NCBI RefSeq assembly: GCF_058153355.1
Contig: NZ_CM177019.1
Reading direction: 5' to 3' (one strand)
DNA length: 64,000 nucleotides
Positions within the stretch are counted from its first letter, which is position 1; every line of letters begins with the position of its first letter. Shown here piece after piece: positions 45,496 to 64,000 of the stretch. The notes under the pieces are model-generated. The model had not been told where the DNA came from, searched no databases, and was given only the letters and a program-made list of their open reading frames with translations. Position numbers and translations under genes: made by a program.

Positions 45496-46080
45496 TTACT
45501 CCGGATATTTAAAAATTACGTAGGTATGCGACGGGCAGAGTTTGTTAAGCACACACTCGACAACGGTGTCGCCCCATATACGCAGCGCGGAATCACAGGG
45601 ATCGCCACATGTCATCCAGGTGGTGTTGGTGGTGGCTGGCATGTTGACCTGCCAGTAATACCGCCATTCCAGCGCATTCACCGCGTCAGTACAGGCTGAT
45701 GAGCAGGTGAACGTGCTTTTGTCGTATCGCGTGATGGTGGCATCTGGTCTGCCCAGGGCAGCAAGCTGTGCAAGATAAAAATCCTCGTTGATGCCGCCCG
45801 CCAGGTTAACCTTCGCATCCAGCCGTTGCTGACGCTGGCGAAGGGTCTGCGTTCCCGCCGGAATACATTCATCCGGCAGACCGCACAGACGCTCCCAGCG
45901 GTTTATCAGTTCGGTGGTGGTGCGCGGATCCAGCTCCCGCATCAGGGCATCCGCACGCTGATGAACACGGGTTAATGACGGTGCCGCACCGGCAATCGCC
46001 GGATCGCTGGCTGACCACGCCGGACCGGGCGGCAACAGTGCCGATAACAGGCGGATGTAATCATCGTTTGTCACGTCCAT
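45496..46080 (-). CDS. Phage tail protein (Mu gp48-like)
   Basis: 194-aa ORF directly upstream of the tail fibre in a baseplate operon. Confidence 0.65.
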
Positions 46081-47129
46081 GAAATCGTCCCCAGCACCGC
46101 CAGTTCATTTTTTGCAATGGAGATATTGTCCGCCGGTGCAAGCAATTGATGGCTGTATTCCCCGTTCGCACCGGAAATCGCTTCACTGATACGCGACACC
46201 TTCAGTTCTCCCTGCGGATAACCATCACGCAGCAGGAACGAACGCAACTCCGCAGTAATGGCGGTTCGTATTTCCGGTGTGTCCGGCGTCACGCGGATAT
46301 GAAAATCCACCGTATGTGCCACCGGCCTGAACACATACAAATCAGAGCCTGCCACCGGGGCCAGTGGCCCGATATGTTGTCTTGCCGCCGTTTCCGTTGA
46401 TTCTTCCGGAATGGGATTAATCAGGTCACTGCTGGCAATCATCACACCGACAGTTCCCGTTCCCATCCAGTGACGGTATGTCCATGCGCGGGTAATGCCG
46501 GGCACTTCTTTAGCCCAGACGACATAGTCCCCGTCAGCCCCGCCCTGCGGCGTCCAGTAATACCGCTCAATGACGCGGGCGCGCCACGTTTCCAGCTCTT
46601 CAGTATCAAATCCGCCTGTCAGGGTGTCAGCCACACCGGAAGACGGCAGACCATTCACCGGCGTGACCAGGATTAATGCCGTACCGTCGTCAGCGTTACC
46701 GACCGCGCCTGCATTTGAGCAGGCGATCGGCACGCGCAGGACACCACCGGAGCTGGTTGCATCGGCAGTTGCAGTATACTGAACCAGGTCATCGCGCTGA
46801 ATAACACTCCCGGCGGTCACCTTCAGGCCATCGCTGACACCTTCCCAGCGCATATACCCGCTGGCAGCCGTGGCCCCCTTGCGCGGACACCGTTTCATCG
46901 CAGCATGTCGCGCCAGCCAGGACTCATCGCACAGGTCAGGCAGCATGTTCATTGCCAGATAATCGATGTACCCGTAAACCGTATGCAGCGCCGCCGCATA
47001 CACCTTTGCCCGCACGTCTTCATCCATGCGCCGGAGCGTGTCGCTGACGTCCAGCCTGGCGAATAAATCGTTACGGAGCATACTGATATTTTCTGCCAGC
47101 GTCGGGCGCTGAAATTCACTGTCTGCCAT
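46071..47129 (-). CDS. Baseplate J-like protein (Mu gp47-like)
   Basis: 352-aa ORF; gene order and size match the Mu-type baseplate wedge. Confidence 0.75.
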
Positions 47130-47544
47130 GCGTTATCGCACTCCACAGATCATCAAAAGAAATCATTACCGGTCCGTCACGACGCCAGAGAGTGATACTG
47201 TTACCCAGTTCATTAATCCCGGTGCGGCGGATATCCAGATCAATACGGGACACCACGCCGTCATCAATCATCCATTGCAGGCATTCGCGGATATACCCCC
47301 TTACCGTCTGCACCAGCTGATTGGTCAGTTTGCTGCGCTGAAGCAGCCACAGTCGGGAGCCGTAACGGTCATTCTGTACCGCAGGCCAGGTATCCCCCCA
47401 CCATCCCATCGGGACGTCGGCGTTGTCATCAGGCTCCGCCCGCCGCCAGGTAAACAGGGAAATCACCACGGCGCGGGTCAGCGGATCCAGCGGTGCGCTG
47501 GCGCAGGTGCGTTTACCGTTCACCGTCAGCCACAGTTCCATCAT
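47116..47544 (-). CDS. Baseplate protein (Mu gp46-like)
   Basis: 142-aa ORF; synteny. Confidence 0.65.
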   Translation of the reverse strand: MMELWLTVNGKRTCASAPLDPLTRAVVISLFTWRRAEPDDNADVPMGWWGDTWPAVQNDRYGSRLWLLQRSKLTNQLVQTVRGYIRECLQWMIDDGVVSRIDLDIRRTGINELGNSITLWRRDGPVMISFDDLWSAITHGRQ

Positions 47545-48089
47545 GCCTCCATCGCTTTATCAGGTTTGTCGGTGTTACTGCCCTGACCGTTCTCTCTGTG
47601 ACGATGCCCGTTATAGGCAAGCCGCATCGCTGACATGGTGGTGCCGCCGGAGTCGCACAGGTCTTTCACCTGTCCTGTCACTTCCAGATCCATTTCAAAA
47701 CGTGCTTTAGGTGAATTGCGAAACGTGATCGTTTTACCTGCACCGTCCACCACGATCCCCTCCCGGGTCAGCGTCACGGACTGCCCCTGATCGTCATAGA
47801 CAGCCACCTCACCCGTCTGCAGCCCTTTCAGGCGGTAACGCCGGTCCGACACCGTAACAACCACCGCATGAGAACGGTCACCATCCGGAAACAACACCAC
47901 CGCTTCCGCACCGCTGTTTGCCCTTGCGGTAAAACCGTAAGGTTCAAGATGTTCAACCCCGGCTTTGGGTTCACCGGCAATCAGGGACACATCCACGGTC
48001 TGACATTTCGTGGCGGCACTGATGCTTTTCACCACGGCCCGCCCAATCAGCCCGAGGAGTTGTCGCTGTATGGTTTCAATCGCCCTCAT
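47541..48089 (-). CDS. Baseplate assembly/spike protein (Mu gp45-like)
   Basis: 182-aa ORF; synteny. Confidence 0.65.
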   Translation of the reverse strand: MRAIETIQRQLLGLIGRAVVKSISAATKCQTVDVSLIAGEPKAGVEHLEPYGFTARANSGAEAVVLFPDGDRSHAVVVTVSDRRYRLKGLQTGEVAVYDDQGQSVTLTREGIVVDGAGKTITFRNSPKARFEMDLEVTGQVKDLCDSGGTTMSAMRLAYNGHRHRENGQGSNTDKPDKAMEA

Positions 48090-49168
48090 CAGAACGGGTC
48101 CTCCTGTACTCTGGCTTTTTTCTTTTTCCGCGCGCCGGGATCTTCGGGTTCAGGCAGATAAGCATCAGGCGGGCCGACACGGATTTCCGTCAGGGTGCCG
48201 TTCTGGTCCTGAGTAAACGTGACTTCCGAAACAAGCAGTTCGGTATTGTCGAAACCACAGACCGGATCAAAGACAATCACCCGCTGGTTGGGCTGCCACA
48301 GCGTACCGTTACCCTGTCGCCAGCCCTGCACCACATAGGTGGTTTCATCCGTCCGCGCCGCCCGTTGTCGGGCTTCAAAGTCAGCACGCGCAATACAGCC
48401 TGCCCCCGTGGCCTGCCCTGTCTGCCTGATATACATCGGACGGTAACGGGCAATAAATGCGTCCTCTGTGCGGGCCCGCAGCGCGGTGGTGGTGGCCTCA
48501 CCGAAATCATCGTCGTTTCCGGCACGCTGCCCCGCCACCTGGTAAACTGAAAACCGCTCCCGGATACTCTTCTCCGTATCACAGGAAAGGATGTTTTCCC
48601 CAAGTACCAGCGCGGTATGTGCCCGCGTTGAGCCAATACCGCCAATCACCAGCCTGCCGTGCGGGTCGTCGTAAGCCAGTGCCTGCTGCTGACCGAGTAT
48701 TTTGTTGATTACCTCAATCACCGTTTCACCGTGATCAGGCTGGACATCAGGAATAACACCCGACGGCGCACCGTTGTTCACCACCTCAATGCCGAAAGGC
48801 GCAGCAAGCGCCTGCGCAATCTGTACCAGCGATCGTCCGTTAAACTGTGTCGGTTCGGCTGCACAGTCAATCAGGTCAGCGGTCAGACTGCGTCCGGCAA
48901 TGCCGGTGCTGACCGAACGGGCATCGTAACGAACGGGCGTCGCCTCCACCCAGCCGGTGATCACCAGCTCATCACCAATCAGCACCTCCACTTTTGAACC
49001 GTTTTTAATGCGCGGCTGAAGCGTGGTAATACCCTCATCTCCCGGCCACTGGCGGGTGATCTCCACACTGAAATCCCGCGCCAGCCGTTCAATACCGGCA
49101 CCGATGCGCACCGATGTCCAGCCATTCCACTCCCGGCCATTTACCCGTAGCGTGACATTGTCGTTCAT
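48089..49168 (-). CDS. Baseplate hub protein (Mu gp44-like)
   Basis: 359-aa ORF; synteny between DNA-circulation and spike genes. Confidence 0.7.
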   Translation of the reverse strand: MNDNVTLRVNGREWNGWTSVRIGAGIERLARDFSVEITRQWPGDEGITTLQPRIKNGSKVEVLIGDELVITGWVEATPVRYDARSVSTGIAGRSLTADLIDCAAEPTQFNGRSLVQIAQALAAPFGIEVVNNGAPSGVIPDVQPDHGETVIEVINKILGQQQALAYDDPHGRLVIGGIGSTRAHTALVLGENILSCDTEKSIRERFSVYQVAGQRAGNDDDFGEATTTALRARTEDAFIARYRPMYIRQTGQATGAGCIARADFEARQRAARTDETTYVVQGWRQGNGTLWQPNQRVIVFDPVCGFDNTELLVSEVTFTQDQNGTLTEIRVGPPDAYLPEPEDPGARKKKKARVQEDPF

Positions 49169-63214: not shown

Positions 63215-63225
63215 ATAACATTATT

Positions 63226-63483
63226 TCAATGATTACTTCTTTTGCTTTCTATTTTGCGGATTGCAACTTTATCTTGATTACATTGATTTAATGCTGATAA
63301 CAAATTCACATTCAAATCAAGACTTGCACCATACGTCAGTGGGTTGGGTATAAACGGTACAGGAGTATCAGAAGTCAAGCTGACTGGTAGTGGTGTCTTC
63401 GGAATGCTCACGTAAACTGTTCGCGTACTTCCGCAACCTGTCAGCAGCGGCAGCAGGTACAGGACGGGCAGCACAATCATCAT
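63226..63483 (-). CDS. o-spanin (Rz1-like outer-membrane lipoprotein)
   Basis: +1-frame ORF overlapping the end of Rz; MMIVLPVLYLLPLLTGC lipobox, proline-rich mature region. Confidence 0.6.
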   Translation of the reverse strand: MMIVLPVLYLLPLLTGCGSTRTVYVSIPKTPLPVSLTSDTPVPFIPNPLTYGASLDLNVNLLSALNQCNQDKVAIRKIESKRSNH

Positions 63484-63760
63484 CCGCAACAGCCACTTTA
63501 ATATCTTCCTGGGTTCTCTGTGACTCCAGTGCGATCTGCTGTTTTGCATGCTGGTTAGCCTCCAGAACTGTATTGACGATTTGCATTGATTGCAGGACGT
63601 TATTGGTAATGGCAGTTGCTGATTCAGCATTTTGTACAGCCTCATCAGCACGTTTCTTTTCGTACTGATATTTGCTGTAGTAGTAGTTGGCTGACCAGAT
63701 GAAAGAACCAATGGCAGTAACGAAAAAAGCAGCGATAATCAGCTTATAACTCAACTTCAT
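63368..63760 (-). CDS. i-spanin (Rz-like)
   Basis: 130-aa ORF with N-terminal TM helix and coiled-coil region, immediately downstream of endolysin. Confidence 0.7.
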   Translation of the reverse strand: MKLSYKLIIAAFFVTAIGSFIWSANYYYSKYQYEKKRADEAVQNAESATAITNNVLQSMQIVNTVLEANQHAKQQIALESQRTQEDIKVAVADDDCAARPVPAAAADRLRKYANSLREHSEDTTTSQLDF

Positions 63761-64000
63761 TTACCACCCCACCAGCCTCTTTAAATCGGGCAATCAGGTC
63801 ACCGATTTTATGTTCATACTGACCGTAACCTGCGCCCGGCAGTGAAGCCCAGATATTGCTGCAACGATCGATAGCCTGACGGATATCACCGCGATCAATC
63901 ATCGGTAAAGCGCCACGCTCTTTAATCTGCTGCAATGCCACTGCGTCCTGGCTTTTGGGGGAGAAGTCTTTCAGACCAAGCTGTTTACGGTAAGCATCCC
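63744..64000 (-). CDS. Endolysin, lambda R-like lytic transglycosylase (C-terminal part; gene runs off window end)
   Basis: C-terminus …RCSNIWASLPGAGYGQYEHKIGDLIARFKEAGGVVNEVEL resembles lambda R; reading frame open to the window edge. Confidence 0.7.
   Translation of the reverse strand, partial: DAYRKQLGLKDFSPKSQDAVALQQIKERGALPMIDRGDIRQAIDRCSNIWASLPGAGYGQYEHKIGDLIARFKEAGGVVNEVEL

Follow-up and report, generated by a model that had tools for sequence, protein, structure and literature searches.

The DNA analysed here, hereafter the window, comprises 64,000 nucleotides (nt) of contig NZ_CM177019.1 (NCBI RefSeq assembly GCF_058153355.1), and from about position 41315 to its end at 64000 it is occupied by a prophage. 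This is almost certainly a temperate myovirus of the SfV type, seen here with its late arm, and it sits in prfC, at the 5' end of the gene, in an Escherichia coli host of a minority lineage. The late genes lie all on the minus strand and cover lysis, packaging, head and tail; this strand carries all substantial open reading frames (ORFs) between 64000 and 43650, which overlap or adjoin closely. An original prediction, made from the sequence alone, had described at 45496-63941 a mosaic virion module in which HK97-like head and packaging genes are joined to a Mu-like contractile tail and baseplate, as in SfV-like phages. Every gene it named was found on the minus strand and in the order given. 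The ends of the proposed span have to be moved: the fibre gene and the G segment lie below 45496, and 63941 is no gene boundary, but an internal GTG of a truncated endolysin frame. The gene list stands as it was given, and the same span also holds spanin genes and an orphan gene that the list did not mention. Genes were named by Pfam, NCBIfam and PHROG scans, the reference proteins of Mu, HK97 and P2 being scanned against Pfam in parallel, and every window protein was compared by tblastn with Mu (NC_000929), HK97 (NC_002167) and P2.

In a megablast search against 50,697 phage records SfV was the top match, with 97.3% DNA identity over 76% of the span, followed by SfIV, SfII, SfI and several E. 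coli phages, and the description of the element as SfV-like is therefore literally true. A local DNA comparison with SfV (U82619/NC_003444) yielded two aligned blocks, 45177-50481 at 97.5% and 52853-62255 at 95.6% identity; the cassette between them, with the tail chaperone and tape-measure genes, is not alignable to SfV DNA. At the protein level most virion proteins are 97-100% identical in amino acids to those of SfV (tblastn), with the capsid and protease at 100% and the portal, terminase, sheath, hub and wedge proteins at 97-99%. The virion gene order is the same in SfV, SfI, SfII and SfIV, and the module, being collinear with SfV and near-identical in DNA, falls within the same structural family. 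Of 5,426 complete E. coli genomes, 18 have a locus covering at least 80% of positions 41400-64000. The best match among them is the prophage of strain E1 (NZ_CP104503), which aligns from the gp48-type gene to the HNH gene (45197-62664) at 98.9% over 17,468 nt; the alignment offset is equal at both ends, hence there is zero net length difference, and the E1 annotation corresponds to the window gene for gene. Because the block is 95.6-97.5% DNA-identical to SfV and 98.9% to an E. coli prophage, chance resemblance is not an issue.

The packaging genes start with an HNH endonuclease gene (62314-62664, minus strand; Pfam HNH, E = 5e-15), the equivalent of SfV orf53, with 91% DNA identity to the right end of SfV. 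It is followed, within a 116-nt gap before the small terminase gene, by the cos junction (62255-62256), where the two ends of the linear SfV genome meet: the end of the SfV record (...GACCTGACGTCT) abuts its start (TCCGGACTGCCC...) at 62256/62255. SfV has the same cos sequence and adjoining HNH gene, and the arrangement HNH-cos-terminase is that of HK97, in which HNH likewise adjoins cos and terminase. The site and the HNH protein would be expected to act in packaging. The small terminase (61694-62188, minus strand), unlike that of HK97, belongs to the P27 family (TIGR01558, 72.6 bits against a cut-off of 45.6) and is 98% identical in amino acids to SfV orf1. The large terminase (59964-61697, minus strand) has the Pfam domains TerL_ATPase and TerL_nuclease and is 98% identical to SfV and 25% to HK97 gp2 (tblastn, E = 1e-27). 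A small conserved ORF of 53 amino acids (59806-59967, minus strand; phrog_7105; 92% to SfV), which is annotated in E1, sits between terminase and portal.

The head genes, also on the minus strand, follow the HK97 pattern, as had been predicted: three HK97 models of NCBIfam score above their cut-offs, and the proteins share the Pfam families of HK97 gp4-gp7, which were scanned alongside. The portal (58590-59816) scores 322 bits with TIGR01537 (portal_HK97) against a curated cut-off of 112, and is 99% identical to SfV and 27% to HK97 gp3 (E = 1e-39). The prohead serine protease (57995-58597; 100% to SfV) reaches 97.7 bits with TIGR01543 (proheadase_HK97; cut-off 59) and is a Peptidase_S78 protein as is HK97 gp4. 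For the major capsid protein (56755-57984), which is 100% identical in amino acids to that of SfV, the score with TIGR01554 (major_cap_HK97) is 325 bits against 27.5, and its Pfam family, PF05065, is that of HK97 gp5. The capsid gene begins 10 nt past the protease gene, with no separate scaffold gene, and the Pfam capsid domain, at residues 125-402 of 409, has about 120 residues in front of it; gene spacing and domain extent thus agree with a scaffold-less capsid with an N-terminal delta domain, and in HK97 too the protease is directly followed by the capsid. Further downstream are a head-tail connector of the HK97 gp6 type (56353-56676; PF05135 as in HK97 gp6; TIGR01560) and a head closure protein of the HK97 gp7 type (55946-56356; PF05521 as in HK97 gp7). 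In pairwise tblastn only the terminase and the portal match HK97, the protease, capsid and connectors being too diverged, although these score above the curated cut-offs of HK97-family NCBIfam models. Between the capsid and connector genes there is a hairpin followed by a T-run (56681-56714, minus strand), with a 14-pair stem, at the place where SfV annotates a putative terminator. Promoter and terminator scans of the window gave counts at background level; from the terminator scans only this hairpin and another one between two fibre assembly genes, described below, were retained, as these stand in annotated or structurally sensible positions.

This head module also bears on whether the element might be a domesticated tailocin of the Mu/SfV type, comparable to R-type syringacin. 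Tails of this type have been co-opted in Pseudomonas (PMC4542187), which gives the idea a precedent. Here, however, a complete packaging and head module is present together with cos, 98-100% identical to SfV, and the element sits at a phage attachment (att) site. With the head genes in place, the tailocin was rejected as having next to no probability.

The seam between the HK97-type and Mu-type parts lies between the gp7-type head closure gene and a homologue of Mu gp38. Two genes placed at this seam (54893-55974, minus strand) have no clear affiliation: a neck or tail-completion gene (55450-55974; phrog_879, E = 7e-86; 62% in amino acids to SfV orf8) and a tail terminator gene (54893-55453; PF23840, E = 3.7e-26; 99% to SfV orf9). 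From there on the genes, still on the minus strand, follow the Mu order, namely sheath, tube, chaperone, tape measure, N, P, 45-48, fibre and assembly protein. The gp38 homologue (54714-54884), a DUF2635 protein of phrog_208, is 42% identical to Mu gp38 (E = 1e-11). The sheath (53255-54730) has Pfam sheath domains and 37% identity to Mu L (E = 2e-84), and the tube (52878-53234) is of the Mu gpM type. The tail assembly chaperone (52558-52881; 52466-52881 with its -1 frame; PF10109) has a candidate -1 frameshift site, T TTT TTT, at 52624-52630, and the -1 frame is open from this heptamer to a stop overlapping the tape-measure start, which is the usual arrangement of tail chaperones. The tape measure (50566-52473; PF10145) is an allele with 24% amino acid identity to SfV that matches E1. 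Downstream of it lie a DNA-circulation protein of the Mu N/gp43 type (49165-50541; PF07157; 26% to Mu gp43, E = 4e-17), a baseplate hub of the Mu P/gp44 type (48089-49168; GpP-like domains 1, 2 and 4; 35% to Mu gp44, E = 5e-54), a central spike of the Mu gp45 type (47541-48089; PF06890; 29% to Mu gp45), and three baseplate wedge proteins, of the Mu gp46 type (47116-47541; PF07409; 41% to Mu gp46), the Mu gp47 or J-like type (46071-47129; PF04865; 31% to Mu gp47, E = 1e-38, and no match to P2 J) and the Mu gp48 type (45496-46080; PF10076; 30% to Mu gp48).

The predicted Mu order of the tail block is therefore borne out, with Mu gp38, L, N, P and gp45-48 matched by tblastn at 26-42% amino acid identity (E from 1e-11 to 1e-84) and with a tube that shares PF10618 with Mu gpM. 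The comparison with SfV-like and Mu-like phages, which had been proposed as a check, accordingly gave 97-100% for most virion proteins against SfV and 26-42% for the tail proteins against Mu, of which the head and packaging system is unrelated to the one found here. In comparison with HK97, whose tail is non-contractile and lambda-type, the tail is by its genes of the contractile type.

That the contractile tail might derive from the P2 rather than the Mu lineage had been raised by the original prediction itself. A few matches point that way: the Baseplate_J and sheath Pfam domains are common to both lineages, matches to P2 H (42%) and P2 G (86%) were obtained with the fibre and its chaperone, respectively, and the tape measure has a weak match to P2 T. 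The matches to P2 are, however, limited to the tape measure and the fibre and assembly genes, and the fibre match reflects a well-known shared fibre cassette; P2 FI, FII, V, W, J, I, U and D gave no tblastn match at E 1e-3, while Mu L, N, P and gp45-48 did. The tube belongs to PF10618, as Mu M does, and not to PF04985, as P2 FII does; the families DNA_circ_N, GpP-like, Phage_Mu_Gp45, GP46 and Phage_Mu_Gp48, which are specific to Mu, are present, and the succession of sheath, baseplate and fibre is that of Mu, whereas the P2 arrangement is split. With the P2 sheath, tube and baseplate unmatched and the Mu families and order present, a P2-type tail was rejected and its probability is negligible.

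The mosaic of an HK97-type head and a Mu-type tail is thus real, but it was published more than 20 years ago for SfV (2002-2003). According to the statement in PMC4542187 that cites this work, the structural genes of SfV come from two phage families and its tail is Mu-like (Allison 2002, 2003), and the head proteins of the SfV group were called HK97 family in the paper on SfIV (PMC3851460). The prophage is accordingly of an already known kind with ordinary modular variation.

This variation is seen within the SfV-identical module as two mosaic patches, 50481-52853 and 55450-56356. The first holds the chaperone and tape-measure cassette, with 24-44% amino acid identity to SfV, and in the second the neck and head closure proteins are 62% and 87% identical to SfV, respectively. 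All the mosaic patches are about 99% DNA-identical to the E1 prophage, which has the same tape-measure allele. The exchange of tape-measure cassette, neck protein and fibre cassette illustrates module swapping within an otherwise conserved virion block.

No frameshift was found in the structural genes against SfV and E1, although the original prediction had considered that such lesions might turn up; the only lesions are a premature stop codon in the sheath gene and the decay of the invertase gene. The annotated gene ends of E1 map to ORF ends in the window for all structural genes except the sheath. In this gene a CAG-to-TAG change at 53255-53257, a single base in comparison with both SfV and E1, removes the last seven residues (QYSEESA), leaving 491 amino acids, whereas the E1 sheath is full length with 498. 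In a three-way alignment the shortened protein stops exactly where Mu L stops (...QFRL and ...QFIL, respectively), and the lost tail is therefore a non-conserved extension; judged by this alignment, the change is probably harmless. The exact 491-amino-acid sheath was absent from about 15 billion proteins in an exact look-up, thus the variant is rare.

Next to the baseplate genes stands the expressed tail fibre gene (44179-45492, minus strand; phrog_6859), in which an N-terminus like SfV orf21 is joined at a gix site to a part of the Mu S type: residues 1-105 are 93% identical to SfV orf21, and from the G boundary onwards the remainder is 66% identical to Mu S. This exact fibre protein was not among the about 15 billion proteins of the look-up either. 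The gix-type site inside the fibre gene (45190-45215) aligns with Mu gixL and forms an inverted repeat with 42122-42175, while a second gix-type site on the invertase side (42115-42140) aligns with Mu gixR. Between the inverted sites two opposed fibre and assembly sets are found, 43650-45155 on the minus strand and 42141-43621 on the plus strand. The former carries, after the fibre, the expressed fibre assembly protein of the Mu U type (43650-44177; PF02413; 89% in amino acids to Mu U); the latter consists of a silent inverted assembly gene of the Mu U' type (43088-43621; 98% to Mu U') and a silent inverted fibre C-terminal segment of the Mu S'v type (42141-43085; 93% to Mu S'). A palindromic hairpin (43625-43644) lies between the two convergent assembly genes, and it is the second of the retained hairpins.

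The G-like segment that had been predicted as part of the fibre is thus a genuine Mu/SfMu G segment, spanning about 42128-45202 (3.07 kb), but it lies outside the predicted span and its switch is broken. Positions 42122-44229, the side with U, U' and S'v, are 92.4% DNA-identical to the Mu G segment, and 42122-45209 align with the G segment of SfMu (KP010268) as a single piece of 3,088 nt at 95.8%. The layout Sc, gix, Sv, U, U', S'v, gix, gin is the same as in Mu and SfMu, which differ from the element in that its constant fibre part is SfV-like and shorter and its invertase is a remnant; in relation to the baseplate genes, the orientation of the segment is opposite to that in the SfMu record. 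In SfV the distal fibre and chaperone stand where this Mu-type segment is found, and the E1 prophage carries a fibre cassette unlike the one here. Comparison of the two gix sites shows a difference at the base beside the central dinucleotide, and in SfMu a one-base change adjoining the central bases of one repeat has been described (PMC4406740).

Adjoining the G segment is a Gin/Pin-type invertase remnant (41857-42060, minus strand), recognised as a pseudogene by alignment with Gin. Its first 22 codons match Gin, reading MLIGYVCVSTNDQKIDLQRNAL with R8C; codons 23-54 are missing, GDTLVVWKLDRLG then follows in another frame, and nothing is left past about residue 67 of 193. With the gene reduced to about 200 nt, the segment has no functional serine invertase beside it. 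With the invertase gene dead, the fibre is probably locked in one type, and the S/U-type pair now in frame is most likely the only one that the prophage expresses, so that the host-range switch would be disabled by the decay of the invertase. For inversion a helper invertase, encoded at another place in the genome, would be required. The Fis-dependent enhancers of Gin and Hin lie in the stretch that corresponds to the missing gin codons 23-54, and inversion may for this reason fail even with a helper.

Between the invertase remnant and the chromosome only a DinI-family gene remains (41578-41826, plus strand; PF06183, E = 1e-19; phrog_189), which marks the prophage end and is preceded by a LexA-box-like sequence, TACTGTATAAAAACGCAGTA, at 41544-41563. 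The interval from the fibre module to the prfC junction thus consists of the G segment, the invertase remnant and dinI only, with no gtrA, gtrB or other gtr-type O-antigen cassette in it; this excludes the element from the serotype-converting subset, not from the structural family. The dinI gene stands where SfV has its gtr serotype-conversion cassette (gtrABV). The E1 prophage ends with dinI as well, and carries between dinI and its own invertase remnant about 3.6 kb of cargo, with an AAA ATPase and an SRAP pseudogene, which is absent here. The integrase and regulatory arm had been placed outside the window, in agreement with what is seen, as the visible end is the prfC side, with dinI and no integrase.

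By alignment with K-12, the junction between prophage and chromosome falls in the 5' end of prfC (41310-41360), at about 41310-41320, and identity to the K-12 chromosome starts only inside the gene. Phage DNA supplies a substitute promoter region, the start codon and the first approximately 14 codons of RF3, which begins MTSLLAAEV... here and MTLSPYLQEV... (MTLSPYLQEVAKRR) in K-12. Strains E1 and EC31 have the same substituted prfC start, and in EC31 an unrelated lambdoid prophage is found at the same junction; a comparable situation was described for a prfC-integrated Stx1 phage (PMC2323221). A tRNA scan found no tRNA genes in the window, and a tRNA integration site is thereby ruled out. This site in prfC is also occupied by near-identical prophages in further E. 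coli genomes, that of E1 among them.

A transposable Mu-like phage would account for the Mu-like character of tail genes, G segment and gin remnant. It would leave the rest of the element unexplained, as the head and packaging genes are HK97-type with cos, not the headful system of Mu, and the element ends at the site-specific prfC junction, which is used too by the unrelated lambdoid prophage. On the strength of the cos packaging and this junction, such a phage was rejected as exceedingly improbable.

The chromosomal flank (1-41300) extends from talB by way of thr, arcA, cre and deo to osmY and prfC. Its identity to E1 and EC31, and to typical E. coli genomes, reaches only about 96%, and its thr operon is at least 99% identical in just 4 of 5,424 genomes; the host is therefore assigned to a minority E. 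coli lineage. Since the prophage is nevertheless 98.9% identical to that of E1, its sequence would fit a recent horizontal spread.

Nothing found contradicts the identification as an SfV-type prophage, and the doubts touch its function only. The window does not reach the integrase, repressor, replication and holin genes, which are thus unseen; in the related prophages of E1 and of contig MCEJ01000050, a CI/Cro-type region, an antiterminator and a holin are present. The sheath gene has its nonsense codon, with seven C-terminal residues gone, and the invertase is a pseudogene. SfV differs further in having a gtr serotype-conversion cassette, which is lacking here at the end next to att, and in its integration site, reported to be thrW instead of prfC.

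From the functional points it could be argued that the element is a decaying, non-inducible remnant, whose virion genes look intact while infectious particles are no longer made. The sheath nonsense codon together with the decayed invertase, the rarity of the 491-amino-acid sheath in the look-up and the fact that the rest of the prophage is unseen are in keeping with this. On the other side, the other structural ORFs are full length in comparison with SfV and E1, the offsets of the 17,468-nt alignment with E1 match and the gene ends coincide. The truncated sheath ends at the natural C-terminus of Mu L, having lost a non-conserved extension, and neither the frameshift site of the chaperone gene nor the cos sequence has been lost. 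The invertase is dispensable in this respect, since gin mutants of Mu form particles without it. A remnant is consequently possible but unlikely, and the late arm of an SfV-type phage with an ordinary virion module is the preferred reading.

For this SfV-type prophage a working can be proposed from the gene content and order, the homologies, the cos and att junctions and the lesions, all of which are observed directly in the DNA. After induction one long minus-strand late transcript, starting beyond the window, would run across four blocks, and these would presumably be transcribed as a single late operon. The first would be the lysis cassette, with endolysin, Rz and Rz1, and the second the packaging genes, with HNH and the small and large terminases, which would cut at cos near 62255/62256. 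The third would provide the HK97-type head, from the portal, prohead protease, scaffold-less capsid and the gp6- and gp7-type connectors, and the fourth the Mu-type tail, from the terminator, gp38, sheath, tube, frameshifting chaperone, tape measure and DNA-circulation protein, followed by the hub, spike, three wedge proteins, fibre and fibre chaperone. The receptor-binding part of the fibre would be carried on the 3.07-kb Mu/SfMu G segment, probably fixed beside its decayed invertase. The resulting particles may be viable.

The lysis genes stand at the window edge, on the minus strand. Of the endolysin gene the 3' part is present (63744-64000; phrog_90, E = 3.7e-31); its frame is open to the edge, and it aligns at 86% with the lysin region of SfV and E1. 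It is followed by an Rz-like inner-membrane spanin (63368-63760; Pfam DUF2570; phrog_214, E = 1.9e-46; 29% to Mu gp23) and an Rz1/LysC-like outer-membrane spanin (63226-63483; Pfam LysC, E = 2.4e-16; phrog_456) with a lipobox-like LLTGC; the Rz1 gene overlaps the end of Rz in a different frame.

The junction of Rz1 and HNH, which is conserved elsewhere, is split here by an orphan AT-rich gene (orf174; 62690-63214, minus strand), and this is the only element of the region that is not already explained. Its GC content is 37%, in comparison with 54.6% for the module. The gene is in neither SfV nor the E1 prophage according to DNA alignment, it gave no match in the 50,697 phage records by tblastn and none in the 5,426 complete E. 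coli genomes by blastn, and the protein has no Pfam, PHROG or PADLOC match, so it was assigned to no family. The exact protein was not found among the about 15 billion proteins, a result that may partly reflect the start codon chosen; an alignment with its relatives suggests that the true start is M17 at 63166, which would be followed by an N-terminal membrane helix. Its own family is small, with 37 relatives among 5.8 billion clusters, all from Enterobacterales (Erwinia, Serratia, Hafnia, Citrobacter, Pantoea and Yersinia), and the family alignment has a conserved motif, LTNEAFLWLP. An AlphaFold model built from a 28-sequence alignment is all-helical with a fair predicted local distance difference test (pLDDT) score of 82, and nothing matched it in PDB or BFVD at E <= 0.001. 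In both other contexts examined, a Hafnia prophage and an E. coli contig, the gene takes the same slot, after the spanin genes and before a terminase or HNH gene. Because its relatives are rare and confined to Enterobacterales, and the slot between lysis and packaging recurs in these two contexts, it could tentatively be proposed that the gene defines an unrecognised class of phage accessory genes, for instance a lysis-timing or superinfection-exclusion factor; this proposal is nonetheless a rather doubtful one.

Beyond annotation the importance of the prophage is slight; gene names can be carried over to it from SfV. An IS110-family transposase gene (3978-4958, minus strand) stands in the chromosomal part of the window, between yaaA (3011-3787) and thrC (5729-7015).

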